A stretch of 64,000 bases of DNA from an uncultured Chloroflexia bacterium (lineage in GTDB: Bacteria; Chloroflexota; Limnocylindria; Limnocylindrales; CSP1-4), in NCBI GenBank assembly GCA_963783055.1, contig CAWAMB010000004.1:718304-782303 (forward strand), read 5' to 3'. Positions within the stretch are counted from its first letter, which is position 1. The number at the start of each line of letters is the position of its first letter. This document shows positions 1 through 45,775 of the stretch, piece after piece. Under the pieces are notes generated by a model that had not been told where the DNA came from, did not search any database, and worked only from the letters and a program-made list of their open reading frames with translations. The translations under genes and the position numbers were made by a program.

Positions 1-1625
1 GCGCCGAGACGACCTCGCCGACGGCGTGCCGCACAGCGGCCCGTCGTCGAGGCTGAGCGCCGGGCCGTCGACCGGCTCGTCCGCGAGGTTCGCCAGGACG
101 AGGAGCGTCTCGTCCCGGGCCGTGCCGAAGGGACGCGACGACCGACGGTCGGCTCGGCTCGACCGGGATCCGACGTCGCCGACAGCGAGCGCCGGATGGG
201 CCGCCCGCAGGCGGATCAGGGACGGTAGGTCGAGAGGAGCGAGTCCGGGTCCGCGGCCTGCGTCGCGACGTCCGTCCCGGCCGGGTCGTCGCCCAGCGGC
301 TGCCACGGCGCCGGTCGTGAACCCGGCGGCGGGCTGCGACGCGTCCCAGCGCATCGGCGTCCGGATCCGCTCGTCCGGCTTGCGCCCGGTCAGCCCGATC
401 TCCTCGCCGTAGTAGATGAACGGCATCCCCGGCCCGGTCAGGAGCAGGGTCGCGGCGAGCTTCGCCGCCGCGAGGTCGCCGTCGAGCTCGGTCGATGACC
501 CGGTCCTGGTCGTGGTTCGTCAGGAACGTCGCAGCCCGCCGGGCGGGTAGCGCTCCGCGACCTCGTCCTGCGCCGCCGCGATCGAGCCCGCGTCGCCGCG
601 AGCGCAGCGAGGTGATCGTCGCGCTGGCCAGGCCGAAGTCGAACGTCAGGTCGAGCGCACCGTCGCGGACGTAGCGCGACGACATCGAGCGTCGCGTCCC
701 AGACCTCGCCGAGGACGAGCGCGTCGGGATGGTCGGCCTTGAGCCGCTCGCGGAAGCCGGCCAGCCACTCGAACGTCGCCGGCGTGTTCTCGAGCTGCCG
801 GCCGTCCTCGATCAGGTGGCGGGCGGCATCGAGCCGGAAGCCGTCGACGCCCATCTCGTCGAGCCAGAATCGGCCGATCGCGTCGAGCTCCGCGGTGACG
901 TCCGGGTTGGCCAGGTTGAGGTCCGGCATGCCGTCCCAGAAGTAGCCGTAGAAGAAGCGCTCGCCGGCGGCGTGCCAGACGCGGCGCCCCGTCGGACCGG
1001 CCGATCCCGGACGCTCGTCGGCCCAGATGTACCAGTCGTCGTGCGCGGAACCCGGCGTCAGGGCGTCCTGGAACCACGGGTGGTCGCGCGACGTGTGGTT
1101 GAGGACGAGGTCGACGATGACGTCGATGCCGCGCTCGTGGGCCGCGGCCATGAGCGCCCGGAAGTCGGCGGCCGTGCCGTAGTCGCGCTCGATCGCGCGG
1201 TAGTCGACGACGTCGTAGCCGTGGTAGCTCGGCGACTCGGCGACGGGCATCAGCCACAGGCCGGTGACCCCGAGGTCGTCGGTCGTCGCCGGGTCGCCGT
1301 CGTTGAGGTCGTCGAGCCGGCTCGTCAGCCCGCGCAGGTCGCCGATCCCGTCGCCGTCCGAGTCGGCGAAGCTCCGGACGAAGACCTCGTAGAACACGTC
1401 GGTCCGTCCACCACGGCGGACGGCTCGGCGCGACGGCGGGGCACGCGGGGCGGAGGCGGCCGCGATCGGCGACGGCGGCTGGCGGTCGCCACCGGCCGTG
1501 GCCGGCGGGCCGGTGGGGCGCCGGCGAGCCGGTCGCGGGTCGCCGGCGACCACCGAGCGAGGCCACGATCGGTCCGCGCGCCACGATGGACGTCCACGGA
1601 CGACGTGCGGTTCGTGACGGGCCAC
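1..1625 (-). CDS. GH13 alpha-amylase family protein, possibly exported; frameshifted and running off the window start
   Basis: [59 protein letters not shown]; the C-terminal part ([20 protein letters not shown]) continues in other frames. Confidence 0.85.
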
Positions 1626-3274: not shown

Positions 3275-5518
3275 TCAGCCGCCCTGGTTGGCGACGATCG
3301 CGGCCCGGCTGACGTCCCGGCGCTCGGCCGCCTCGCTGGCCGCGGCCGTCGCGGTCTCGCGGGCCGCCTCGGCTGCCGGGAGGTACATGCTCTCGACGTA
3401 GTCGCGCAGCATCCGGGTGGTCGAGAACCGCCACATCGTCGAGGCCATCGAGCGCCGCATCAGGTCGGCCCACCGGGTCGGCAAGCCGTCGGCGTCGCGC
3501 TCGTAATAGCGCGGCACGATCTCGTCCTCGAGCAGCCGGTAGAGGTCCTGGGCGTCCGCCCAGTCCTGGGCGCCGTCATCGGGGTTCTGCTCGCGTCCGC
3601 CGATCGCCCAGCCGTTGTCGCCGACATAGCCCTCGTCCCACCAGCCGTCGAGGACGCTGACATTCACCGCGCCGTTCATCGCGGCCTTCATCCCGCTCGT
3701 CCCCGACGCCTCGAGCGGCCGCCGCGGGTTGTTGAGCCAGACATCGACGCCGGACACGAGATAGCGGCCGATCCGCATGTCGTAGTCCTCGAGGATGAAG
3801 ACCCGGCCGCGAAGCCGCTCGGAGCGCGATCGGCCGAAGATCTCCTGGATGACCTGCTGGCCGGGCCGGTCGGCCGGATGGGCCTTGCCGGCGAAGACGA
3901 CCTGGACGGGCCGCTCCTCGTTCCAGAGGATCGCGGCCAGGCGCTCGAGATCGGTGAACAGCAGGCCCGCCCGCTTGTAGGTCGCGAACCGCCGCGCGAA
4001 GCCGACGGTCAGGATGTCCGGATCGAGCGCCGTCTCGAGGGCCTCGAGGACGGCCGGGGCCTCCCCATGACGGGCGAACTGGTTGCGCAGCCGGCGCCGG
4101 GCGAAGATCGCCAGCTCGAGCTTCTCGCGCTGGTGGGAGTCCCACAGCTTGGCGGTCGGGATGTCGGCGAGATGCTCCCAGAACGGCCCGACGTCGCTCT
4201 CGTCGTCGATGTCGTCGAGATCCGCATCGAGCTCGCGCCGGAGGGTCTCGCTCATCGCGTTGCCCATCCACGACGGAACATGGATCCCGTTCGTGATCCC
4301 CCGGATCGGGTGGGGAGAGATGCCGCGCCAGGTCGCGTCGGCGGTCTCGGCGTGGAGCTGGCTGACGGCATTGGCGTCGTTGGTCAGGCGGAGCGAGAAG
4401 CCCGTCATGTCGAACTGCGTGCGGTCGCCGTCGGCGCCGAGGCCGAGCTCGAGGACGGCGTCGATCGGCACTCCGCCGGTCTGCGTCCGCCCATCGCCGT
4501 CGAGGAGGGGTCCGGCGACCGCCTGGACGAGATCGGCCGCGAATCGCTCGTTGCCGGCCGAGACCGGGGTGTGGATCGTGAAGACGCTGTCGCGCCGGAC
4601 CCGCTCCCAGGCGGTCTCGAGCGCGACGCCGGTCGCCACGAACTCGCGCGCCCGCTCGGCCAGCAGGAACGCGGAGTGGCCCTCGTTCAGGTGCCAGACC
4701 GCCGGATCGATGCCGAGGGCGCGCAGCGCGCGGACCCCGCCGACGCCGAGGACGAGCTCCTGGTGGAGCCGCATCTCGCGGCCGCGGACGTACAGGATGT
4801 GGGTGATCGGGCGGTCGGCGTCGGCGTTCTCGGGGATGTCGGTGTCGAGCAGCAGGACCGGCGTCCGCCCGACCTGGACCGCCCACACCGCGATCTGGAG
4901 GTCGCGGCCCGGCAGCGCGATGCTGACCGTCAGCGGCTCGCCGTCGCGGCCCTGGACCCGCCCGACCGGCAGGCGGCTCAGGTCGTAGTCCGGGTAGGCG
5001 TGCTCCTGGTGGCCGTCGGCATCGATCGTCTGGTGGAAGTAGCCGCGGCGGTACATCAGCCCGACGCCGACGAACGGCAGCGCCATGTCCGACGTCGTCT
5101 TCATGTGGTCGCCGGCGAGGACCCCGAGGCCGCCCGAGTAGATCCCGAGCGACTCGTACAGGCCGTACTCGGCGCAGAAGTAGGCGACGGGACCCGGCAG
5201 CTGGTCGGCGTGATGGCGGACGAACCAGCGATCCGAGCCATTCGCGAGGTAGCGGTCGAAGTCGCGGAGGAGCTCGCGGACCTCGACCATGAAGCTGGCG
5301 TCGTCGAGCAGGCGGGTCCACTCGACGGGACCGGCCAGGACCGGAATCGGGTTGCGGTGGCGGTTCCAGGCCCGGCGATCGATCCGACTCCAGATCACCC
5401 GGGTCCGCGGATGCCACGCCCAGTACAGGTTGTAGGCAAGGGCGCGGAGTCCCTCGAGCTGGGGAGGGAGTCGGAAGGAGGCGCCCGGAATGGTCGGGAT
5501 GATGACGCGCGACGGCAT
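3275..5518 (-). CDS. glgP: Alpha-glucan (glycogen) phosphorylase
   Basis: YSGGLGVLAGDH, HLNEGH, FARRFATYKR, GKAHPAD and the PLP motif EASGTSGMK; 747 aa. Confidence 0.95.
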   Translation of the reverse strand: MPSRVIIPTIPGASFRLPPQLEGLRALAYNLYWAWHPRTRVIWSRIDRRAWNRHRNPIPVLAGPVEWTRLLDDASFMVEVRELLRDFDRYLANGSDRWFVRHHADQLPGPVAYFCAEYGLYESLGIYSGGLGVLAGDHMKTTSDMALPFVGVGLMYRRGYFHQTIDADGHQEHAYPDYDLSRLPVGRVQGRDGEPLTVSIALPGRDLQIAVWAVQVGRTPVLLLDTDIPENADADRPITHILYVRGREMRLHQELVLGVGGVRALRALGIDPAVWHLNEGHSAFLLAERAREFVATGVALETAWERVRRDSVFTIHTPVSAGNERFAADLVQAVAGPLLDGDGRTQTGGVPIDAVLELGLGADGDRTQFDMTGFSLRLTNDANAVSQLHAETADATWRGISPHPIRGITNGIHVPSWMGNAMSETLRRELDADLDDIDDESDVGPFWEHLADIPTAKLWDSHQREKLELAIFARRRLRNQFARHGEAPAVLEALETALDPDILTVGFARRFATYKRAGLLFTDLERLAAILWNEERPVQVVFAGKAHPADRPGQQVIQEIFGRSRSERLRGRVFILEDYDMRIGRYLVSGVDVWLNNPRRPLEASGTSGMKAAMNGAVNVSVLDGWWDEGYVGDNGWAIGGREQNPDDGAQDWADAQDLYRLLEDEIVPRYYERDADGLPTRWADLMRRSMASTMWRFSTTRMLRDYVESMYLPAAEAARETATAAASEAAERRDVSRAAIVANQGG

Positions 5519-32787: not shown

Positions 32788-34197
32788 TCACCAGGGCGCG
32801 ACGGCCAGCAGCCGGTCGTAGCCGCTGCCCGGGACCGGCGCCAGCCGCGTCCCGCTCATCGCGTCGAGGGCGACGATCTCCCCGCTGCCGTGGACCAGCG
32901 CGAACAGGACGGTGCCCGGCGTCGTGAGTCCGAGCCCGTCGATCGCGGAGCCCGCCAGGTCATGGCGTGCGACCGTCAGGTCCTTCGTCCGGATCGCGAC
33001 GACGCCGTCGCCGCCGGCCGCGTAGAGCATCGTCCCGTCCGGCGACACGATGACCCGCCGCCCGATCGGCCCGACGTCGAGGTGGCCGAACTTGGCGAGC
33101 ACGATCCTCGGCCCGGCCGCGGTCAGGTCGATCGACGCCGAACGCCGGACGGACAGCTGAGCCGGATCGACCTCGACGACGATGCCGACGCTCGCGTTCA
33201 CCGCGTACACCGTCGCGCCGTTGTCCTTGGCCGCGAGGCCCCAGTCGAGCGCCGCGCCGGGAGCGACGGCGACCGCCGCGCCGAACGATCCATCGGCCGG
33301 CAGGTCGATGCAGATCGCCCACGCCTCGGTCGACATCAGGGCGTGGATGAACGGATGCTCCGGGCCGTCGTAGAGCGTCAGGACGAGCCCGCTCGCCTGA
33401 CGGATCTGGGCGATCGGCGATCCGGCCATCGTCTCGTCGGGGTTGCCCTTGTCGACGATGACGGCGTCGCGCATCACGCCCGTCGGCACGTCGATCGCGC
33501 GGACCTGGTAGCGACCGCCGGACCGCTCGTCGAGATGCTGGACGACGTAGAGGATCCGGCCGTCGGGCGACAGCGCGTCGTACTCGAATGCGCCGGGCAG
33601 CTCGATGATCCGGGCGAGGCGGAGCGGCGAATCGCCCGCGGTCTGGACCTTGTTCCCCAGCGCGTGTTCGACGATCGCGAAGCGGCTGACGACCGGCGAG
33701 TCCGGCGACGCACCGTCGTAGGCCCTCTCGACGAGCGCGATCGTCGAGCCGTCGAGCGACCGGCCGGCCGGAACGGGATCGAGCCCGATGGTCGGGAGCT
33801 GCCAGTTGCCCGGGACGCGCAGCTCCGGCCCGCCGAGGCCGGGCTGCACCACGACGTCGCGGACGATCGTGGCGGTGCCGTCCGGGGTCGCCGTGACGAC
33901 CCTGGCCCAGGTCGCGCGGGGTGCGCCGTTCGGGATGTCGAGGCCGACTTCGCCGGTCGTCGAGAGCATCAGCTGGAGGTCCGCCTGGCCGGGACGACCG
34001 ACGAGCAGCCAGGCCTTCGACAGCTCGGGATCGACGCCGGGAGCTGATGGCCGGGCGCTGGACGTCGCACCGGACGTGGGCCCCGGCGAGACCGGCGCCG
34101 GCGGCAGCGATTCGGGACTCGCCGCCGCCTGGCAGCCGGTCAGGATGAGCGCCGTAAGCCCGATCGTCAGCCCGTGGGGGAGGGAAGTGCGTGGCAT
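32788..34197 (-). CDS. Lipoprotein with a probable beta-propeller
   Basis: Lipobox LTGC, Pro/Ser linker, LSPDGRILY and VSPDGTMLY blade motifs. Confidence 0.75.
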   Translation of the reverse strand: MPRTSLPHGLTIGLTALILTGCQAAASPESLPPAPVSPGPTSGATSSARPSAPGVDPELSKAWLLVGRPGQADLQLMLSTTGEVGLDIPNGAPRATWARVVTATPDGTATIVRDVVVQPGLGGPELRVPGNWQLPTIGLDPVPAGRSLDGSTIALVERAYDGASPDSPVVSRFAIVEHALGNKVQTAGDSPLRLARIIELPGAFEYDALSPDGRILYVVQHLDERSGGRYQVRAIDVPTGVMRDAVIVDKGNPDETMAGSPIAQIRQASGLVLTLYDGPEHPFIHALMSTEAWAICIDLPADGSFGAAVAVAPGAALDWGLAAKDNGATVYAVNASVGIVVEVDPAQLSVRRSASIDLTAAGPRIVLAKFGHLDVGPIGRRVIVSPDGTMLYAAGGDGVVAIRTKDLTVARHDLAGSAIDGLGLTTPGTVLFALVHGSGEIVALDAMSGTRLAPVPGSGYDRLLAVAPW

Positions 34198-34276: not shown

Positions 34277-35170
34277 TCAGCGGATCGAGGCGGCGATGGC
34301 GATCGTGGCCGCGCGGTCCAGGCCGGACTCGAGGCGATAGGTGACGTCGTCGCGTGTCCAGAGCAAGGTGTCGCCGACGCTCCGCCGGCTGTCGAACGCG
34401 GCCTGGCCGTCCGCGCCGACGTACACGATCTCGTGGGCCGTCCCGGAGATCCAGTAGGCCGGCTCGCCGTCGACCGAGACGGTCGTGATCGTCGTTCCCT
34501 GGCTGATGATCTTCTGGAAGTAGCCGGAATCCAGCGAGCCGCGGAACTCGCTCAGGATCAGACCGACGCCGGGCTCCGCGAGCTCGGGCAAGGTCGGGGT
34601 GGCGCTCCAGACGAAGCTCAGCCGGCCCTCGAGCAGCCACACGGTGGCCGGGGTACCGACGCCCGGCGCGGTCGGCAGCGTGACCGGGATGTCGACCAGA
34701 TCCGGCGCCGTCGCAAGCTGGATCCGGCTGCCCATTCCGAGGTTGCTGCCGAGCGGATCGGCGGGCGTCGGACGCGGCGTGGGCGTCGGACGGGCGGTCG
34801 GCGTGAGCGACGGCGATGGACCGGTCGAGCCGGTCAGTGAGGGGATCGGCGATGCCGGCGGCGCGAAGACGATCCGGATCCCGGGCAGCCCGAGACCGAT
34901 CGCGCCGGCGACGGCGGCGAGAGAGAGGAGGGCAACCAGCGCGAACACCGCGCCGCGGCTCAGCCGGCGCCCCGGGGTCGGGGCGAGCCACGACCAGCGT
35001 CGCCGTGGCACGTTGGCCGCGCCCGTCGCCTGGGTGATCCGGAGTCGGGCGCGAGCCGCCGGATCGAGCCCGCCCGCGGCGCCGACGGCGGGGACCGCCA
35101 ACGCACCGCCCAGGTCGCGCAATGCGGCCTCGAGCGCAACATCGTCGAATGGACGGAGGCGGTCAGCCAT
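34277..35170 (-). CDS. Putative membrane-anchored anti-sigma factor
   Basis: Overlaps the ECF gene; N-terminal LEAALRDLG helix, one TM, Pro/Thr linker, extracellular domain ending TLLWTRDDVTYRLES. Confidence 0.7.
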   Translation of the reverse strand: MADRLRPFDDVALEAALRDLGGALAVPAVGAAGGLDPAARARLRITQATGAANVPRRRWSWLAPTPGRRLSRGAVFALVALLSLAAVAGAIGLGLPGIRIVFAPPASPIPSLTGSTGPSPSLTPTARPTPTPRPTPADPLGSNLGMGSRIQLATAPDLVDIPVTLPTAPGVGTPATVWLLEGRLSFVWSATPTLPELAEPGVGLILSEFRGSLDSGYFQKIISQGTTITTVSVDGEPAYWISGTAHEIVYVGADGQAAFDSRRSVGDTLLWTRDDVTYRLESGLDRAATIAIAASIR

Positions 35171-35758
35171 CGATCGGTCCCGCCTCGGCCGGTCCGAGCC
35201 GATCGCGGAGGCGTGCCAGCGCCCGCGACAGGCGCGACTTGACGGTGCCCCGCGGAACGCCGAGCAGCTCGGCGGACTCGGCCTCGGACAGCTCCAGGAA
35301 GTAGCGCGCCGTGATCACGTCGCGATCCTCGTCGCGAAGTTCGTTGATGCCGGCCAAGCAGCCAGAGCCGACGCTCATCGGCGAGGACCGCCGACTCGGG
35401 CGATGGGGCCGCATCGTCCGGCCGGCGATCCTCGACGGAGCGGAGGGCGAGCCCGGCCCGACGGCCGGCCGACCTCCGCCGATTGCGGGCCTCGTTGGCG
35501 ACGATCCGGAGGAGCCACGGCCGGAACGGCGCCCCGGCCCGGAACCGGGACAGCGCCGCAGTACGCCTTGACGAACGCCTCCTGCACCGCGTCCTCGGCG
35601 TCGCCGTCGGGCGCGAACAGATGCGCCGTCCGGACTGCGACGGCCTGGTGCCGGCGGACCAGCTCCTCGTAGGCCATGACGTCGCCTCTCCGTGCGCGGT
35701 CGATCAGCTCGGCGTCGTGACGCCCTTCGTCTTCCAGTGGACGGCCCTCCACGGTCAA
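35163..35758 (-). CDS. ECF RNA polymerase sigma factor (frameshifted)
   Basis: DAELIDRARRGDVMAYEELV, AEDAVQEAFVKAY, FRPWLLRIVANEARN, ELSEAESAELLGVPRGTVKSRLSRA. Confidence 0.9.
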
Positions 35759-35768
35759 CCGTAGTCCC

Positions 35769-35794
35769 TACACCGGGCTGAGGGCGATGGTTCC
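35769..35794 (-). promoter_or_regulatory. Autoregulatory ECF promoter motif GGAACC-N14-GGTGTA
   Basis: Lies immediately upstream of the ECF start codon. Confidence 0.72.
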
Positions 35795-35827
35795 ACGGCG
35801 CCATTCCGCGGGGCATTCGCCGCTCCG

Positions 35828-35884: not shown

Positions 35885-38800
35885 CTACTTGAAGGTGAAC
35901 AGGGTGGAATAGGTCGTACCGTCAAAGAACTTGACGTCCAGTCGCTGGCACGTGCCCGCGAGCGTCTTGGCCGTCTTCCAGTTGAACTGGTACTGGCCGC
36001 TGGCGGTGTCGTAGGTCAGAGCGCTCGTCTGAGTCGTCGTTTCCTCGAGATCGTCAACCGGTGCCGTCGAGGAACAGGCAACAGGTACAGCGAGTGGGAA
36101 ACCGGTCGCGAAGATGCCGGTGAGACCGCGGTTGCCACCGAGACTGAACTTCACGGGCACCGTGCTGCCCGCCTTGGCGGAGTTGACCATCGGCAAGTTG
36201 TCGACGGGGGAGAAGAAGCCGGTGAATGGCCAAACGGTCAGAGACACCGAGCCCGAGACCGAGCCCGTGAAGCTGTCGTCAGACGGGGTCGTAAGGGGGC
36301 AGGCACTCGCCGCGATCGGCTTGTCGAAGCAGGCGTAGATCGTGTACGTGCCGCCGGTCTGCGGGGTCGGCACGAGCTTTGCCTTGCCGTCGAGTCCAGT
36401 CACGGCCGTCATCGTCGAGGACACTGGGCCGCTCACGACGAACCAAACCGTCTTGAACGGGATGGGTGCGCCGCTCGCGCTGGTCAGCGTGGCGGTGACG
36501 CCCACGCCGCCCGAAACGACTGGGCCGGTCGGATTCGTCAGCGTAAGTGTCGTCGCGCCTTTGCCAACACTCAGTGAGCGAGCGTCGCCGCTCGGTTGAT
36601 AGTTCGTGTCGCCTGCGAAGCCCGCTGACAACAGCGACGTACCGGCCGCAGGTGGTAGCGGCACCGTCGCGCTTGCAACGCCATCCGAGTCCGTTACGCC
36701 GGTCACCTGTCCGACACCGGCTTGGAACGTGATCGTCTTGCCCGCGACGGGATTGCCACCGGATGTGAGCGTCGCGGAGGCGGAAGTCGTGGCGCCAGCG
36801 CTACCCGACGTCGGCGTGCTTGCGAGCACCAGCGTCGTGGCAGCAGCGGTGGTCGTTGCCGCCGATGCGTTGAACACCCGGTTGTACGCGCCCAGGTTGT
36901 CGGCGATGGTCACCAGGCCAGCACCGTTCACTGCCTCGACGATGAAGCGGATGTTCGACGCGTTTACGCCGGACGGGAGATTGAAGGAGCCCGTGAACAG
37001 GCTCGGGTTCGCGGCGTCCGCGGTCAGGTCGACCGGGTGCCAGTGCTTGGCGCCACTGTTCTCGGTGCCGGTGTAGACGATCCACACGGACTGGATGCCC
37101 GCGCTCGGATCCCCGGTCACCGTTGCCTGGACGTTCACGGTCGAGCCCGTGAGGATGCCCTGGATGTTGGTGATCGCCGGAGCTGCCGCCTGGGCCGCGT
37201 TTCCGGTGAACGAGCTGTAGAACAGCTTCAGGCCGACATTGCTATAGACGCGGCGGATGGACTTACCCGCGTTTGCGTCGTCGGTCTTGTGCTGGGCCGG
37301 CATGACGAGGAGCTTGGTAGTGCCACCGCCCAGCGCATCGAAGTAGTTCGTACGCCAGACCTGGGCCGGGACGAACATCGACGAGGCGAATGCCGGCAGC
37401 GCCGGATCGCCGACGAGCGTGGACACATCGCTCAGCAGCGGCGTCACGTTCGGCGTGTCGGTGTAGTCGCCGCCGATGAACCCGACGCCCTTCAGGACCT
37501 TGCCCGTCGCGGTCGCGTTCTTGACCTGAAGCGGCAGGATCGGAGATCCGACATTCGCCGTGATCCCATCGCTGCCGGACAGGTAGCTGCCATTCGGCGA
37601 CGTGGGCGAGCCCGGGTTCGTTGGCGTTGCGAGCGTGACGACGGCGGACTGAAGTCCGAGCGGTCCGGTGCCAATCACCCCGTCGACCGGACTCGGTGTG
37701 ACGCCCGCATCCGGAGTCGGAGCCGCGACGCGGCCGGTCGGCATCGCGACGCTGAGCATCGGCAGCCCATAGAGGGTCGCCTGGATGATCGACTTCGCGT
37801 GCAGGACCCGGATGTCGGGCGTGGATGCCAGGTAGATCTGCTTGGCCTTGAGAAGCGCCGTGCCGAGCGGGACAGCCTGGCCGACCGAGCCGATTCGGAG
37901 CTGGTGCGCGAACTCGGCGTAGATCCGTTCGCCGTACTCGACCAGCTCGTCGTCGCCGTACTGGTAGCCGGTGCCGCCGATCAGGGTCGCTCCCTTGCGA
38001 GCGAACGCCTGGGCAAAGTCGATCGGCTGTGTGCCGGTCGTCTGATCCGCGTCGAGCAGGTTGTAGCCGGAGTGGCAGCCGGCGCTGAAGACGATGGAGT
38101 TGACGAGGTTCACCGACGCGGTGGCGATGTCCGTGGAGGACAACTTCGTCGTGAAGTCGGCGGCGATTGCCTCGTTCGCAGTGAAGTGACCGCCCATGAA
38201 GATCAGGTCGTGGCGGGTGCCCGTGACCGCCTGCTTGAGCTGGACGCCCGTCCAGGCATTCGCCGCCGGCACGCCGAAGGCGTTCGTCGCGAGCAGCGTG
38301 TCGCTCGTCTTGCCGGTGCCGGCATCGAGCTCGGACTTGACCTTGTCCGCACCGTCGCGGAAGAAGTCGTAGCCGGTCACGAGCGAAGTCGTCGGAGTCG
38401 CTACGACGCCGTTCGTCGTCGCGCCATAGGCGTCGAGCATCCCAGAAGCCTCAGAGGCCGTCTCCACGAGCCGGCCGACGGCGAGCTCGGGGATCGGGAA
38501 GGCGTACATGCCGAGCGAGATGCTCACGCTGGATCCGTACTCATCCTGGCCGAGGACGTAGTCGGAGCGGAGGCTTGCCTCCGACGGCGATGTCGTCTTG
38601 ACCGGCGGAATGTAGTCACTCTCTGGCCCGAGGGTGTTCTGGTCCGGGTAGCGGAAGAACGGAATCGTGGCGTCGCCGCCGACGAGAACGATGTACTTCA
38701 TCGTCGGGTTCGCCGTTCGGTACTTCGTGACCACGTCCTTGATGCCTGCCGCGACCAAGTTCTTCGCGTACACGCACGCGGCGTTGGCTGGGAGATCGGC

Positions 38801-41678
38801 TTGCGCGTTGAGCGCGGCGATCCGGGCTGCGCCGCCGAAGCTGGAGAGGTCGACAACGGCGCCGTTGACGGACGTCCTTGCCGCGAATGTATCGAGCTTC
38901 GTCTTGAGGGCGTCCTTCTCGGCGGTCGTCCCGGCGATCCGGTTGCGGTCCCAGAGGATGAGCGACTGCTTCGTGCCCGTCGGGGCGAGGAAGGTGTCAG
39001 GCGCGACGGGATTGACGCCCGTGCAAACACTGTTGCCGCTGGTGACCTTCAAGGTGAACGGCGTTGGAAGGCTCGACGCCGTGTCCTTGCCGGCGATGGC
39101 GACGTAGAAGCTGCCGGTGTTCGTCCAAGTGTTGACGTCGATCGTTTCGTCGCCGGTCCCGAGACCGTACGAGGCCCCGATCAGGCTCCGGACCTGGGCG
39201 TTCGCGTAGGCGGCCGGATCGATCGGATTCGTCCCTGTGCCGACGAACGCATTGCCGCCCACAAAGGCATTGCCGCCGACGAACGCGTTGCCGCCCACAA
39301 AGGCATTGCCGCCGACGAACGCGTTGCCGCCCACAAATGCGTTGCCGCCGACGAACGCGTTGCCACCGACGAAGGCATTCCCGCCCACGAAGGCGAACCC
39401 GCCGACAAAGGCGTTGCCACCGACGAATGCATTGCCGCCGACAAAGGCGTTGCCCCCGACAAACGCATTGCCGCCGACAAAGGCGTTGCCACCGACGAAC
39501 GCATTGCCGCCGACAAAGGCGTTGCCACCGACGAACGCGTTGCCACCGACCTCGGCGGCCTGCTTTGTCAGGCTGGCATTGCCGGTCAGGCTCGTGTAGG
39601 CCTGCGTGATGTCCTTGAAGAGGAAGACGTCATAGTCCGCCGGGAGATTCGAGAGCGAGATGCGCGCCGTCGAGCCCGGCTGGACCGTGAACTTGTACCA
39701 GCGCGCGCGACCTGGCGCGTCGATGAAGCCCGACGTCGGCGATCCGCCTGCGGTTCGCGAGCTGATGTCGAAGGCGAATGGCCACTGATCATTCGGTGGG
39801 GCGACGACGATGCAGGGGCCGACCTGGCCGGCTGGCGCGCTCGTGACTTGGGCGGCGACGTACTGCTGGAGGGAGCCAGCGCTGAAGCTCAGCGATCCGC
39901 CGAAGGACGACAGCCCATCCGAGCCAGTCGTGATCGTCTTCGTCCCGAGTGAAGCAGCTCCAGCGCCAAGCGTGCCGCTGTCACAATCCGGGCCGGTCAG
40001 GAAGGTGACTTCGTACGTGATCGGCGCCAATGGGTTGGTTGAAGGTTCGCCCTTGAAGAGTCCGGCCACGAAGACCTTGGTCGCAGCCCCCGGCGTGTCG
40101 ATGACGTGGTCATTCGAGTCGATTGGCACAGCTTCATAGAGCTGGGGAATGCCGGTCGCAGCGCCGACGACGACCTGGACCGATTGCGAGTGGGTGTGGC
40201 CGTTCAGCGTTCCGGTCAGGGAAGCGGTGTACACGCCTGGGGTCGCGCCGACGGTGGCCGCGACATGCAGCGGGACAAGCGAGTTCGTGGCTGCCGTCGC
40301 GCCGTCCAGCGAAACGGTGACGCCCTGGCCCGCCGGAACGACGGAGCCGGAGATCGCGATCGCTCCCGTACCGACGCCGACAGCGTTGGCCGGGATTCCG
40401 ACGTCGACGGTGCCTCCGGGATTGACGCCTGCTGCCGCCGGGCTAGGCGCGCCGAAGGTGAAGTCAGTTGCAGCGGCCGGTGGCGTCGCCGCGCCGAGGT
40501 CGGGATAGACGGTGACGGCGTCGAGGACGATCCCCCGAGAGGAAGTCGTCGGGCTGTTCGAATAGAACTGAATAGTCGTCTCGTCGCCTGCGGCGGTGAA
40601 CGCCTGGGACCCGAGCTGGTAATCCATCTGCGCGACCGATGGGCGCGTCTCGGGTGCGACCGCGATCGGTGCGTGGGTGTACTCCGGGCCGACTTGAGCG
40701 CCGTTGATGTTGACGAGCATTGACGGATCGTCTGGGGCGCCATCCCGGTTCCGCGAATAGCGGAATTCGAGTCGATATAGCTGGCCTGGAATGGTCTCGA
40801 TGGTCTGGCTGATCGCGCCCGGGCCGTTGCCGTAGGCGACGGGCTCGAAGCTGATCTGGTCCAATTCCCCATCGAGGTCGAGCGACTGGTTCGCGTGGAA
40901 GGCGGCCCAGTAGGAGTCGGGAACGGTCTGGACGCTGCCCCGGTCGACCGACCAGCCAGTCAGTCCAGTGGATCCGGCGTCGTAGAGATCGTTGTCGGGC
41001 GGGAACTCGAGGGGATTGACGACCGGCGTCTCGAAACTGCCGTTCGCGATCGTGTCGATGCCGACCTTGAGCGTTCCCTTCAGGAACGAGTTGAAGTCGC
41101 TGTTCGAGCCGGTGACCTCGAACCCGTACTCGTCACCGTCCAGGACCGTGACGGAAGTCGAGCCGGAGTAGCTGAAGCCGTTCGAGGGCGTCGTGCAACA
41201 GTTCGCCGGTCCGGCCGCGACGAGAGCCGGTGTGACATAGGTGACCGACGCCCCGTGCTTCACGTACGCCTTCAGCCCGACCCTGACCTGGAACCACGCG
41301 TGGACCCCTGTGAGGTTGTAGTGCAGGAAATGCGTGCCGTCGGCGTGCGCGGTCGCGTGGAGGGTCCAGGTCTTCAGCGGCACGCCGCCACCCGTCGTAC
41401 CGACGCCGAAGGCGTAGTCGAGCTGGGCGAGGCCGCCGCGTGCCGTCGCGGGTGACGGTTGCGGTTCCCGGTCCGCTTGCGGTCCAGGCGGTGCTCGGTA
41501 CGACGACCGACACGGGAGGATTCGCCGCCATCACCGGCACTGTGAGGACCGTCGCCTGGGCGACAAGCAGGACCGCCGCGAGCAGGCTTGTCATGCGGCG
41601 GAGGGTCGGGCGTCGTCCGCCTCCGAGCGACCAAGGAGAACGGGAACGGCTTCTCTCAGCGCGAGTGACGGCTGACAA
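35885..41678 (-). CDS. Giant (~1930 aa) secreted protein: DUF642-like domain, PPC-like domain with GGNAFV repeat insert, C25/gingipain-like Cys protease, Ig-like domains, PxKF domain; one frameshift near 41440
   Basis: Signal peptide in ORF 41133-41678; NGSFETP..LDLDG..ISQTI; WYKFTV..DYDVFLF; YIVLVGGDATIPF, LAVGRLVET, MGGH, SAGCHSG; FTGFFSPVDN..AGSTVPVKFSL. Confidence 0.85.
39242..39547 (-). repeat. 17 x 18-bp coding tandem repeat (GGNAFV x8, GGFAFV, GGNAFV x8)
   Basis: Counted unit by unit; differences are synonymous except in unit 9 (39386-39403). Confidence 0.95.
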
Positions 41679-41890
41679 CAGAACGAACCTCCATGCCCTA
41701 CACCCCGAAAGCCCCGGAATCTAGGACAGCGCGCGCTCCGGCTCGAGCAGGCGGCCGGCAGTCGGTGAAGTATGGGACTTTTGTCACGCGGACGGTAGGT
41801 CCTATCACCTACTGGTGGTGTCGTCGCGACGACACAAGTGGTGCCCGCGCGCCCCGGACGACGCTCGCGACGCGGCAACGCAGCCCCGCG

Positions 41891-44800
41891 TCAGCTCCCG
41901 CTCTCGGCCGCCACCCGAGCGGCGGCGCCCAGGGCCGCGTCGATCGCCTGCTCGAAGGACCACCCGCGCCCGCGCGCGATCGCGCGATCCGCCGCCTCGT
42001 CACCGAGCGTCTCGACGCGCCGCGCCGAAGTGCCCCGCCAGCTCGGTGTCGAGCGTCGGCGGCCGCGGCGACCCGATCTGGCCGCGGACCGCCTCGGCAC
42101 CGCCGAGCAGCTCGAATCCGAGCTCCTCCTCGCCCACCCGGGCCAGCAGCACGCCGACGTCCTCGAGGATGAACGTGAGGGAGAAGCGGTCGTCGAGATC
42201 GCGCTGGAGCTGGAGCGCCTCCGCGTAGCGCGTCGCCGCCGCCCAGTGCTCGCCGCTGTCGCGCTCGGCGTTGCCCAAGGTGAACGTCGCGTGGGCGACC
42301 ATCTGCCGATCGCCGAGCTCGCGCGACAGGCGCAACGCTTCCTCGAGGTGACGCTGGGCGCCGTCGAGGTCGCCCGTCAGGATCCGGTAGTAGCCGGCGT
42401 TCATCTCGCCGATCCCGACCCCGCGCCGGTCGCCGATCCGGTGGCGCAACCCGAGGGCGGCATCGTTGATCTCGCGAGCGCCCGTGTAGTCGCCCTCGAA
42501 CTCGGCGAGGATCGCGAGGTTGCCGTCGGTCGTTGCGACGCCGGCCCAGTCCTCGATCTGCTCGCGAACGGTCCGGCTGTCCTCGTAGCGGGCCTTCGCG
42601 GTCGCGTAGTCGCCCTGGAGCTGGGCGATGACGCCCGCGAGATGGAGCATGTCCCCGACGCCGTTCTCGGCGGCCAGCTCCCGGAACCGCCCGAGCGCCG
42701 CGTCGAGCCGGGCCGTCGCCACCTCGAACCGGCTCTGGCGCTTGGCCGTCTCGGCCAGGGACGCGTCGGCCCACGCGACCTGGAGCAGCTCGCCGTCGGC
42801 CTCGGCGAGGTCGCGCGCCTCGGTGGCCATCGCCTCCGATTCGCCGAGCGAGCCGACGACCTGGAGCACCTTGGCGAGCTTGAGCATCGTGGCGACCCGC
42901 TCGCGGGTCTCGAGCATCGGGACGAGCCGCTCGTAGTAGTCGATCGCCGCGGCGTTCGCGTAGGTCTCGCGGGCCGCGTCGGCCGCCCGGCCGAGGTAGT
43001 CCCGCTTGCGGACCTCGTCGTCGCTCCGCCAGAAGTGATAGGCGAGCAGGTCGAGCTGGCGGTCGATCGCATCGCCGGCGGTGTCCTCGATGTAGCGCCC
43101 GATCCGCCCGTGGAGCATCTCGCGGACGGCGAACGGCAGGCTCTCGTAGGCGACCTCCTGGGTCACCACGTGCTTGAACAGCCACGCCTGCTCCGCCTCG
43201 CGATCGAGGTTCACGAGGTCCGCCGCCCGCAGCACGCCGAGGTTCTCGACGACCCCGTCGAGCGGCCCGAGCTCGGGGTACGCGCCCGGCAGCGCCGGCG
43301 CCTCGAAGGTCCGGCCGACGACGCTCGCGACCTTGAGCGTCCGGCGCGGTCCTTCGCCGATCGTGTCGATCCGGCCCAGGACGAGGCTGTGAAGGCTCTC
43401 CGGCAGCTCGATGTTGCGAACCGCGCGCTCGTCGGTCGGGTCGATGCCCCGGCTCGCGATGAACGTGACGAGCTCCTCGATGTAGAACGGATTGCCGCCG
43501 GACCGCTCGGTCACGAGGGCCACGAGCGACTCGCTCGCCGACGCGTCCGTGCCGGAGACCTGCTCGAGCTTCGACCGGATGAGGCCCGCCGCCTCCTCGG
43601 GGCCGAAGTGGTCGAGCACCCGCTCGCGGAAGGACGGCAGGCGCTCCAGACCGAGGCCGCCACCCGGCGCATCCGCGGGCCGATAGGCGAGGACGATCAG
43701 GACGGGCAGGCTCGCCGCGGCGCGGGCGAGGGTCGCGAGCAGGTCGCGCGACAGCTCGTCGATCCAGTGGCAGTCCTCGAGGACGAGGATCACCGGCTCC
43801 GTCGCGGCATGGCCGCGCAGCGCCTCGACGAGGAGCGCCTCGAGCGATGCCTTGCGGAGCTTGGCGTCGAAGGCCTCGGTCAGGTCGCTGTCGGGGATGT
43901 CGAGGCCGAGCAGACCGCCGAGCAGCGGCGCACGGGCCACGAGACCCGGGTCGATGCCGGCCAGATCCGCCTCGAGGACCCGCACCTGGGCTGCCTCGGG
44001 GTCGTCCTCGTCGAGCCGGAACAGGCGCCGCCAGATCTCGCGCCACACGAAGTAGCCGGTGTTCGAGCCGAACGACTGGCACTCGCCGAACCCGACGAAC
44101 AGGCCGCGCCGGCGGGCCGACCGCACGAACTCGGCGACGAGGCGCGATTTGCCGGTTCCTGCCTCGGCGGCGATCCCGACGATCGCGCCGCTGCCGGTCA
44201 GCGACTGCTCCAGGGCGTCGTCGAGCAGCTCGAGCTCCTCGAGCCGGCCGATCAGCGGCAGCTCGTAGCGGAGCTTCCGGCGCGAGGCGCCTTCGAGCGA
44301 CCCGATCAGAGCATGGGCGACGACGACGGCCGACTTGCCCTTCAACGTCAGGTTCGGCAGGGCGTCCCAGATGTACGCGTCGCCGGCGTCGGTCCGGACG
44401 TCGTCGTGGACGTAGATCGAGCCTTCCGGCGCCTTCGACATGAGGCGCGCCGCCAGGTTGACCGCGTCGCCGAGGCACACGAACGTCCGGCGCATCGCGA
44501 TGGCCGTACGTCCCGCTCCGGAGCCGGCCGTGGCCGATCCCGATCTGGATGCCCGTCGCGTCGGTGGTCCGCTCCAGGTCGCGGAGCTCGAGGGCCGCGG
44601 CGGCCGCGCGCGCTGCGTCGTCCTCGTGGGCGGTCGGCGAGCCGAAGACGCCGTACAGGTAGGCGCCCTTGTCGCCGAGCGTCAGCTGGAGGACGTTGCC
44701 GCCGAACCCGGCCATGATCTGCTGCGCCCGCCGGACGAACGTGTCGAGCTTCTCGATCGCGCCATCGTCCTCGTCGTAGTCGATCCCGCCGAACCGGACG

Positions 44801-45660
44801 AACACCGGATAGGCGGGACGAAGCTCCGCGAGGAACTCGCCGCGACCCGCCCGGATGCGATCCCAGACCGCCGGCAGCAGCCAGGGCCGGACGAGCTCGT
44901 CCTCGAGCGGCGGCGGTTCCGGGGCGGGACGGGCCGGGACCGAGACGAGCAGATCGTCGACGACGCCGAAGACGCGCCCGGACGCGTCGTCCGTCCGCGT
45001 CTCGGTCAGGCTGACCCGGTCGCCGAGCGCCGCGATCGCGGACGGGTCGAGGACGACCTCGCCCTTGTCGGCATGGTGCTCGGTCTCGGCGAGGTCGTCG
45101 ACGAGGTGGCCGGCGAGGACGTCGATCAGCTGGATCGTCGGGTCGCCGACGACGAACCGCCGAGCATCGCCGACCGCAACCGCGACCTTGACAGCGAGCC
45201 GGACGATCGTCCCGTTGGGCGTGGTGATCGTGCCGACCCGGTCCATGGCCTCCTGGATCCCGAGGGCCGCGGCCGTCGCGCGCGTGCCATCGTCGCCGTC
45301 GAGCCAGCAGGTGATCGCGTCGCCCGAGAAGTAGATGACGTCGCCACCATACGCGTCGACCTCGGCGATGACGGCGTGGAAGACGCGATCGAGGTTGGCG
45401 GTCAGCTCCTCGGACCCGCGCTGCGAGCCGAGCTCGTTGGCGAGGGCCTCCGTCAGCGGAGTGAAGCCCGAGATGTCGGCGAACAGGCCCGCGCCGTTGA
45501 CGCGGTCGGCCATCTCGGTGTGGTCGGCCAGCGCCTGGCGGCGGTCGCGGGCGATGTACGCCTCGGGGTGGTCGCGCGCCTCGCCGCCCGCATCGCCGGC
45601 CGGCGGGTCGCCCGGCGGAGCGGCCGTCAGTGTGGATCGGTCCGGATCTCGGTCCGCCAT
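41891..45660 (-). CDS. Soluble adenylate-cyclase-like protein: two class-III cyclase domains, STAND/AAA ATPase, TPR repeats (frameshifts near 44500 and 42020)
   Basis: LFADISGFTPLTE, FSGDA, GDKG..FGSPTAHEDD, GDAVNLAARLM, LIGR..EL, AEAGTGKSRL, LVLEDCHWID, GGNPFYIEE, FKH, TPR-like helices. Confidence 0.9.
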
Positions 45661-45775
45661 CGAACTCCCAGGTGAAGCGTCACTCGCGCCCCGGCGCTGC
45701 TCCATCCTAGCGGGGCGGCGTCGCTGCTACGATCGGGCCGATGGACCCGTCCCCCTCGACGCCCGGATCCGCCTC

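Follow-up and report, generated by a model that had tools for sequence, protein, structure and literature searches.

What does a run of seventeen near-identical hexapeptides do inside a secreted protease? The question is posed by a stretch of 64,000 nucleotides (the window) from the genome of an uncultured Chloroflexia bacterium (assembly GCA_963783055.1, contig CAWAMB010000004.1, positions 718,304 to 782,303), whose minus strand carries a giant gene with a tandem array of GGNAFV units. The gene is real and codes for a secreted protein of ∼ 1900 residues. At the heart of this protein a β-sandwich of the PPC/collagen-binding type, interrupted by the array, is followed directly by a gingipain-fold cysteine peptidase domain; around this heart lie DUF642, immunoglobulin (Ig)-like and C-terminal PxKF domains (Table 1). 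The finding is wider than the original prediction, made from the letters of the DNA, had supposed: the protein represents a divergent family of gingipain-fold proteases with a conserved array and a conserved signalling partner.

The sandwich and the peptidase domain were modelled with AlphaFold (residues 530–1250, 45-sequence alignment, mean pLDDT, the predicted local distance difference test, 79.7). In the model the two halves of the sandwich fold together at pLDDT values above 90 (strands of the N-terminal half above 88). The closest fold match of the sandwich is the collagen-binding domain of ColG (5iku_A, Z 13.4, root-mean-square deviation (rmsd) 2.1 over 106 residues, model range 1..253), with ColH (3jqw_A, Z 13.3), 1nqd_A (Z 13.0) and the PPC domain of Bacillus anthracis collagenase (5sv5_A, Z 11.4) as further matches. 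Each of these collagen-binding or PPC folds spans model residues ∼ 1 to 252–254 and thus both halves, which therefore constitute one sandwich in which the array replaces one loop just before the gingipain-fold domain. This agrees with the split PPC-like domain that had been read from the motifs WYKFTV (residue 562), DYDVFLF (583), ETIDVNTW (746) and GSFYVAIAG (757). Pfam PPC (PF04151) reaches 14.2–16.4 bits against a cut-off of 25.9 and aligns with the N-terminal half alone (profile positions 3–34 of 70, E 0.017); the array cuts this domain in two. The nearest ESM Atlas cluster combines PPC (99%) with Peptidase_C25 (77%) at a score of 0.93, which we treat as a lead only.

The order of the surrounding modules is as originally stated. 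DUF642 passes its Pfam cut-off (PF04862, 29.5 bits versus 27) and stays below that of TIGR04362 (87.8 bits versus 120), and the PxKF domain matches NCBIfam NF038114 over its whole length (128.1 bits versus a cut-off of 35, E 1.9e-37, profile positions 1–113 of 113). The Ig-like segments resemble Big_3_5, and the family profile matches the Ig domains of intimin in the PDB (E 1e-6); all of the Pfam scores (28.8–30.9 bits) lie under the cut-off of 35.5, and on this point the protein departs from the original description. The conserved region that follows the peptidase core has no Pfam family over cut-off.

The peptidase core is predicted with a pLDDT above 90 over most of its length. Its fold matches RgpB at a Z of 32.8 (4ief_B, rmsd 2.6 over 310 residues) and Kgp at a Z of 29.3 (4rbm_A); other clan CD folds score lower (separase 17.5, Csx29/CHAT 15.6, PorU 13.1, caspases ∼ 9). 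Foldseek likewise pairs the core with RgpB (4ief/1cvr) at E ∼ 1e-10, the best value being 8.9e-11. The motifs noticed at the outset, YIVLVGGD (residue 897), AVGRL (968), MGGH (1063) and SAGCHSG (1100), all fall within the core. The last two contain His1066 and Cys1103, which are invariant in 45 of 45 aligned sequences; across 250 relatives Cys1103 and the adjoining His1104 are present in every one and His1066 in 248. A clan CD review, in the part that deals with RgpB, places the His/Cys dyad where two central strands reach their C-terminal ends (PMC4357240). In the model, His1066 and Cys1103 both come after a strand, and by fold, topology, order, spacing and invariance they would be the equivalents of that dyad. 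The original prediction of a clan CD/C25-type His–Cys arrangement is borne out in this form, the equivalence being one of topology.

Some points weigh against the assignment. The dyad equivalence does not extend to a residue-level superposition on RgpB. Residues 790–1250 have no Pfam match at E up to 10, PF01364 (cut-off 23 bits) included, and no gingipain was returned by PDB sequence searches with the whole protein, the family profile or a relative (P0094). The PDB sequence matches are limited to the array (left-handed β-helix proteins) and the Ig domains (intimin). When the whole genome was searched with Pfam Peptidase_C25, the giant gene was not matched and weak matches appeared at two unrelated places; the same search of 14 control genomes gave nothing. 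The profile is nevertheless passed by 6 of 34 relatives of 45–59% identity (best 51.6 bits, profile positions 10–348 of 374). We call the domain C25-like (gingipain fold) and not a formal member of PF01364; its identity as a protease is, from the predicted fold, well supported.

The array itself is as first described: 17 hexapeptide units, 102 uncharged residues, set in the PPC-like domain. Sixteen units read GGNAFV and one, unit 9, GGFAFV, giving a composition of G34 F18 A17 V17 N16 and zero charged residues. At the DNA level Tandem Repeats Finder reports a period of 18 with 17.3 copies and also a 36-base superperiod. The 17 units are written in 11 different 18-base sequences that code for two peptides, with synonymous variants at every codon position of the unit and a single amino-acid change in 102 codons; the array peptide itself is therefore under selection. 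The closest relative found, in a same-genus genome (G017), has a core 74% identical and again 17 GGNAFV units, with GGHAFV at units 1, 9 and 14, so that a variant at unit 9 is common to both proteins. Orthologous units of the two arrays differ by 2.76 per 18 bases and non-orthologous units by 2.74; no unit-by-unit orthology can therefore be read from the DNA, save for a shared GGG codon and the unit 9 variant.

How widely the array occurs follows from the relatives of the core. A core search gave 2556 representative clusters at E up to 0.001 (978 at E up to 1e-30), a word-indexed search gave 1192 proteins of similar length, and a relative is encoded in 513 of 588 candidate stretches of species-representative genomes. 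The best 80 loci from species-representative genomes, which underlie all species-locus results below, belong to Chloroflexota (including Limnocylindria), Actinomycetota (Acidimicrobiia, Gaiellaceae, Solirubrobacterales) and Pseudomonadota, with one Verrucomicrobiales and one Haliangiales. This is a very large, uncharacterized family from Chloroflexota, Actinomycetota and some Pseudomonadota; literature searches on the PxKF domain, on the repeat strings and on gingipains and C25 in Chloroflexi (these judged by title and abstract), with supplementary files outside their reach, returned nothing about it. N-terminal modules differ among relatives (VWA, β-helix, CBM96, cadherin-like, DUF642), and the constant block comprises sandwich, array, core and post-core region.

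The array as a unique or orphan feature was ruled out, since relatives carry arrays at the same site. The original prediction was to fall if the repeat were disordered and absent from homologues; it is not absent, though nearly all of the homologous arrays are built of five-residue units. The core is preceded by 200 residues or more in 201 relatives, and 182 of these, from several phyla, have a strong periodic array at this position. The period is 5 in 170 of them and 10 in nine, where two five-residue units alternate in most cases; periods of 6 (this protein), 8 and 9 occur once each. The arrays have a median length of 90 residues, and in 177 of 180 each unit contains a single aromatic residue. 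The five-residue units follow the profile Pro (159 of 175), Ser/Asp/Glu/Gln, Ala/Val or another small residue, Phe/Tyr/Trp and Ser/Ala/Thr/Ile, and thus alternate polar, small-apolar, aromatic and small residues, position 5 never being charged. Copy number is narrowly distributed (n = 176), with a mode of 18 (53 arrays) followed by 19 (32) and 17 (21), 106 arrays falling at 17–19, and variant units recur at units 5 and 8. The unit itself turns over: there are 62 unit types in 180 arrays, with no fewer than 89 switches between them required on the core tree, and PSAFS and PSVFS together make up 72 of the 182 arrays in three phyla. The 17 GGNAFV units are this lineage's six-residue form of a family-wide array of ∼ 18 near-identical short units.

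Other six-residue arrays were found close by and further afield. Two further same-genus genomes have 16 and 18 units of GNP[SA]YI, and the 80 species loci contain additional GNPSYI/GNPAYI arrays and one GGGAFT array. In the core tree these fall into two well-supported groups, one in which two GGNAFV arrays and the GGGAFT array stand beside an SNAFT array, and one in which six GNP[SA]YI loci stand beside PPAYA/PPSYA arrays. As two separate groups thus have five-residue sisters, the period changed from five to six at least twice. Both changes turned the small residue behind the aromatic into Val, Ile or Thr and set a Gly after it, and the product of both, [V/I/T]-G-x-x-[A/S]-[F/Y], fits the hexapeptide pattern of left-handed β-helices, [LIV]-[GAED]-x-x-[STAV]-x. 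The array of this protein meets the same pattern 16 times as V-G-G-N-A-F and once as V-G-G-F-A-F. Indeed, the independently derived GNPSYI array of one same-genus genome (G024) passes Pfam Hexapep (36.8 bits versus a cut-off of 27). Six-residue arrays mostly have 16 to ∼ 20 units; compared with the five-residue arrays it is copy number that is kept and not length. Shorter six-residue runs were detected at two loci (L041 and L007), that of L007 being interrupted by variant units. One genus thus harbours two lineages of the giant gene, the GGNAFV type and the GNPSYI type (G024, G013), whose cores are just 52–55% identical. The gene was matched in 4 of 24 same-genus genomes searched and in none of 16 genomes of another family, and it is present in single copy in the genome of the window. 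The two lineages, together with the copy in just 4 of 24 genomes, suggest gain, loss or transfer of the giant gene within the genus.

Upstream of the giant gene lies a second conserved element of the locus, a gene for a protein with tandem cyclase domains like those of soluble adenylyl cyclase, an AAA_16 (STAND-type) ATPase and TPR repeats (ADCY10 in the PDB, E 1e-19; AAA_16, E 5.6e-23; TPR_12, E 1e-18). In the window it is split over two frames (41809–45705 and 42000–44495). The partner adjoins the giant gene in each of the three further same-genus loci retrieved and in 62 of the 80 species loci, or 39 of the 44 with full 10-kb flanks. On the strand of the giant gene it is found upstream in 46 loci and downstream in 4; on the other strand, downstream in 10 and upstream in 2. 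Two contigs of one metagenome-assembled genome (L043 and L045) carry near-identical giant genes; both have PEAFS arrays, their cores have branch lengths of 0 and 0.005, and in both the cyclase partner lies downstream in opposite orientation.

Co-variation of the two genes was followed by pairwise identity of their regions across ∼ 50 loci, the last ∼ 230 residues of the partner being taken as its TPR end. The cyclase and ATPase regions of the partner vary together (r 0.93), and the TPR end correlates with its own cyclase/ATPase part at 0.29–0.30 only (0.29 for the cyclase). With the giant protein it reaches 0.73 for the core, 0.73 for the second half of the core, 0.78 for the post-core region and 0.63–0.68 for the sandwich halves; the PPC, core and post-core segments of the giant protein correlate with one another at 0.60–0.75. 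Tree comparisons agree: the TPR alignment loses 246 log-likelihood units on the core tree versus 705 on the tree of its own N-terminus, and the core alignment loses 519 on the TPR tree versus 1345 on the partner N-terminal tree. The approximately unbiased test rejects every foreign tree. The TPR correlation shows no fall-off with distance along the giant gene, and taxonomy labels on the trees (phylum changes 3, 6, 3 and 8) gave no sign of which part of the partner follows the organism tree. The partner is therefore a mosaic, its putative TPR sensor end having the same history as the giant gene; because of this shared history we assign the partner to the system of the giant protein, the meaning of the link being inferred. 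The shared history could come from a functional match between the two proteins or from adjacent DNA being inherited together.

For the array we tentatively favour a reading that may well prove wrong, namely a short β-helical spike with aromatic ladders that serves as a binding or association surface beside the active site. After export the array would fold into a short β-helix, with three units to a turn and some six turns in all; in this lineage the helix would be of the left-handed hexapeptide type. Small and aliphatic positions would fill its core (Ala, with Val here and Ser, Thr or Ala in the five-residue units), and the aromatics would form ladders outside the helix. Held by the conserved helices on either side, the rigid spike would place the neighbouring active site on its target. 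Such a β-helix accounts for a copy number that is constant across two periods and for the arrival of an aliphatic residue and Gly each time a sixth residue was gained, as well as for the alternating unit profile, the uncharged, half-apolar composition seen here and the need for the units to change together. The array also matches left-handed β-helix proteins in the PDB (gamma-carbonic-anhydrase-like, LpxD and LpxA; E 1.7e-8 to 1e-6). The β-solenoid proposed in the original prediction is thus backed by the hexapeptide pattern and these matches, whereas the low pLDDT of the array (24–39 over all runs) lends it no support.

A number of further observations weigh against the spike. With the 45-sequence alignment AlphaFold assigned the array a pLDDT of 24–28 and no secondary structure; with four sequences of the six-residue type it gave 30–39 and short strands every six residues, the flanks being poor too. 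No confident prediction of the array fold was obtained. A trimer prediction with three copies of residues 531–791 gave a score of 0.00 (mark 0.42) and counts neither way. Pfam Hexapep (PF00132, cut-off 27) reached 13.8 bits with the whole protein and 23.3 bits with a 261-residue piece, and the hexapeptide matches are weaker than their E-values suggest, because perfect repeats inflate profile scores. The spacing between variant units shows no excess at 3 and no period of 3 or 4. Asp or Glu is present in every unit of 43 of the 175 five-residue arrays, which would create acidic ladders if the units were stacked, and in a minority of relatives the units at the array site are irregular and 7 to 10 residues long. 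Finally, the unit profile of Pro, polar, small, aromatic and small is just as suitable for recognition by a protease.

This last point leads to the main rival, which we consider rather unlikely: the array might be a flexible pro-segment, an exposed, unstructured loop in which ∼ 17 identical pseudo-substrate or cleavage motifs lie within reach of the active site next to it. Its cleavage would open the loop of the sandwich, render the enzyme active or free it from its N-terminal targeting modules, and would shed short peptides on the side. The absence of structure for the array in the AlphaFold models is what such a loop would show, and its setting, in a β-sandwich directly N-terminal to the catalytic domain, may be compared with that of RgpB. 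In the section on RgpB of the clan CD review, an ‘inhibitory loop’ of the N-terminal prodomain is described that puts Arg126 into the S1 pocket and whose cleavage begins activation (PMC4357240). The five-residue profile resembles P4–P1′ of a protease site. The period ranges from 5 to 10, yet 177 of 180 arrays keep the aromatic, which fits a linear motif better than one fixed fold, and the proposed catalytic Cys and His are conserved in 250 and 248 of 250 relatives. One site would be enough for latency, however, and the flexible loop leaves unexplained the ∼ 18 copies, the keeping of copy number over length, the gain of [V/I/T]-Gly on two occasions and the matches to the hexapeptide family. A 102-residue uncharged loop, half of it Ala, Phe and Val, is moreover unlikely to be soluble and extended, and no clan CD family entered in the table of PMC4357240 takes an aromatic at P1. 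The array may act as a folded spike or as a processed loop.

Shed peptides could also be the purpose of the array. A multi-copy precursor from which the protease domain or a partner excises ∼ 17 identical hexapeptides, to be read by the TPR sensor of the partner and converted into a cyclic AMP (cAMP) signal, would explain why the units are identical and selected at the peptide level, and the 62 unit types with their ≥ 89 switches on the core tree also speak for it. The adjacency of the partner (62 of 80 loci) and the tracking of the giant protein by the TPR end (r 0.73, versus 0.29 for its own cyclase) point the same way, and pairs of loci with the same unit have TPR identities higher by 0.029 when core identity is controlled for, a value that 4 of 500 label shuffles reached and that is uncorrected for relatedness. 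Clan CD enzymes that ligate or transfer peptides are among the fold matches (OaAEP1, Z 10.1; glycosylphosphatidylinositol (GPI) transamidase, Z 10.7; PorU, Z 13.1). We nevertheless regard this precursor as very unlikely: PSAFS or PSVFS in 72 of 182 arrays from three phyla would be poor specificity for a private signal, variant units are held at fixed positions, and the co-variation involves the whole module from PPC to post-core region without singling out the array, so that co-inheritance of neighbouring DNA could suffice; cleavage, export, import and binding all remain hypothetical. A broader version, a two-gene signalling cassette in which the array gives specificity either as excised peptides of five or six residues or as a displayed surface and the TPR sensor reads it to make cAMP, is likewise improbable in our estimate. 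If true, it would be a new kind of cell signalling coupled to a secreted protease, widespread in soil Chloroflexota and Actinomycetota, and a cassette like the co-varying sensor and peptide genes of peptide quorum-sensing loci. It is highly improbable that the array lacks a specific role, be it as an inert spacer of low complexity or as a product of replication slippage. The low predicted order, the growth by duplication that the tandem DNA repeats and their 36-base superperiod imply, and the frequent turnover of unit types would suit a spacer. Such a spacer is hard to reconcile with synonymous variation at every codon position beside one amino-acid change in 102 codons, with the retention of an array at this position, within a narrow range of copy numbers, by 182 of 201 relatives across several phyla, or with 17 units both here and in the relative with the 74%-identical core.

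Set against known systems, the giant protein shares with the gingipains RgpB and Kgp of Porphyromonas gingivalis (MEROPS C25, clan CD) the catalytic fold (rmsd 2.6–3.1 over 310–317 residues), the order of His before Cys with each after a central strand, an N-terminal β-sandwich, Ig-like domains after the core and a secreted, multidomain build. It differs in that the two are 10–15% identical, its core is ∼ 100 residues longer and does not reach PF01364, its end is a PxKF domain instead of the C-terminal domain of the type IX secretion system, its upstream sandwich is of the PPC/collagen-binding type with a repeat array, and its hosts are soil Chloroflexota and Actinomycetota. Like the collagen-binding domains of ColG and ColH and other PPC (PF04151) domains, the sandwich (Z 11.4–13.4, rmsd 2.0–2.4 over 101–107 residues) belongs to a secreted peptidase; unlike in ColG and ColH it precedes the catalytic domain, and one loop is replaced by two helices and the ∼ 100-residue array. 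With the left-handed β-helix proteins of the hexapeptide type (LpxA, LpxD, gamma-carbonic anhydrase; PF00132) the array shares its period of six residues and its [V]-G-x-x-[A]-x pattern. Its units, however, are perfectly identical where those of LpxA-type proteins are degenerate, it would make ∼ 5.7 turns, it is inserted in a domain and has no acyltransferase context, and the fold is unconfirmed by prediction.

The ∼ 18 five-residue units of the relatives recall the pentapeptide-repeat proteins (PF00805 clan, Rfr), and weak Pentapeptide matches occur in a few relatives (P0047, 17.6 bits versus a cut-off of 38; precomputed PF00805/PF13599 on P0113). Here, however, the unit has six residues, and the five-residue consensus P-[SDE]-[AV]-[FYW]-[STA] puts a polar or acidic residue where Rfr needs a small buried one. 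The Rfr quadrilateral, with its consensus A(D/N)LXX, was rejected as a fold for the five-residue units because of Asp, Glu or Gln at the position that would be buried. The partner resembles ADCY10 in its tandem cyclase domains followed by the AAA_16 ATPase and TPR, but is paired with a giant secreted protease whose history its TPR end shares. We know of no described pairing of a cyclase/ATPase/TPR gene with a giant secreted protease, and the literature searches on the PxKF domain, the repeat strings and gingipains found no cyclase/protease pairing of this kind.

To our knowledge gingipain-type proteases have been studied almost solely in one oral pathogen, and the present family has thousands of members in soil and groundwater bacteria of several phyla. 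Two of its features are without known explanation, the ∼ 18-unit array beside the active site and the cyclase/ATPase/TPR partner with its co-evolving sensor end. The six-residue arrays amount to natural experiments: a period that went from five to six at least twice with copy number unchanged constrains what the array can be. The structure of the array and the ligand of the partner would show how abundant soil bacteria deploy or regulate a major class of extracellular protease, and might reveal a new signalling route.

Table 1. Features of the giant gene, its product and the partner gene, in positions of the window.
Feature	Position	Strand	Residues and remarks
Main open reading frame of the giant gene (P0001)	35885..41383	minus	1832 aa plus stop
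Signal-peptide-like N-terminus, MTSLL...VMA (MTSLLAAVLLVAQATVLTVPVMA)	41526..41594	minus	ATG at 41594; frame other than that of the main open reading frame
Frame break	41436..41446	minus	upstream frame reads ...TVTRDG; main frame picks up at RGGLAQLDY
DUF642 / choice-of-anchor C domain	40508..41053	minus	111–292
PPC-type sandwich, N-terminal half and helical lead-in to array	39548..39766	minus	540–612
Tandem array of 17 hexapeptide units	39242..39547	minus	613–714 (102 residues)
Helix after array and C-terminal half of PPC-type sandwich	39014..39241	minus	715–790; kept in 114 of 120 relatives
Peptidase domain of gingipain fold (C25-like, clan CD)	37634..39016	minus	790–1250
Codon of His1066 (MGGH), proposed catalytic His	38186..38188	minus	follows model strand 531–534
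Codon of Cys1103 (SAGCHSG), proposed catalytic Cys	38075..38077	minus	follows model strand 568–571; then His1104
Conserved post-core region	36886..37636	minus	1250–1500; family-specific; BLAST match in 120 of 120 relatives
Ig-like domain (Big_3_5-like)	36566..36823	minus	1521–1606
C-terminal PxKF domain	35888..36223	minus	1721–1832
Partner gene (soluble-adenylyl-cyclase-like tandem cyclase domains, AAA_16 (STAND-type) ATPase, TPR)	41809..45705	minus	upstream of the giant gene

In the present assembly the giant gene is not one uninterrupted frame. The main frame runs from stop to stop over 35885..41530 on the minus strand, and the two frames of the gene meet near 41441; the TTG at 41678 is merely the first possible start of the upstream open reading frame (ORF). 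The stretch 35885–41678 named in the original prediction is thus not a single reading frame in this assembly. A signal-peptide segment is present, as predicted, but lies out of frame with the main ORF. The orthologue of the closest relative (G017) is one open frame of 1975 codons, in which the signal peptide and the matching N-terminal region are continuous with the remainder of the gene. As this ORF is intact, as the genes for an extracytoplasmic function (ECF) sigma factor and for the partner are also split, and as the genome of the window (4 contigs) has a marker completeness of 69.7%, the frame break is, from the sequences compared, probably an assembly indel; the split genes and the incomplete, four-contig genome make the assembly look indel-prone. 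Three public DNA sequencing runs, each containing 5–9% of the sampled words, gave pieces of 150–260 bases on the window and none across the frame break; among the runs listed as containing such words none was of RNA. The G013 orthologue (L004, ∼ 4483–4541) has a frame change of its own inside the PPC-like domain, after RSRWYKF, which is another likely assembly indel.

Within window positions 36000–42000 the GC content is 0.656–0.672 over the giant gene and 0.70–0.74 in its flanks. The ECF sigma factor gene (35163–35816, minus strand) has Sigma70_r2 in ORF 35375–35758 and Sigma70_r4 in the overlapping ORF 35163–35816. Further on, a predicted lipoprotein of 469 residues with an LTGC lipobox-like start (32788–34197, minus) has no Pfam family at E up to 0.001. 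Beyond the sigma factor gene, ORF 34277–35170 (minus), which is without a Pfam match, is anti-sigma factor-like by position; an ORF of this kind recurs downstream of the giant gene in G024, in G013 and in 11 of the 80 species loci.

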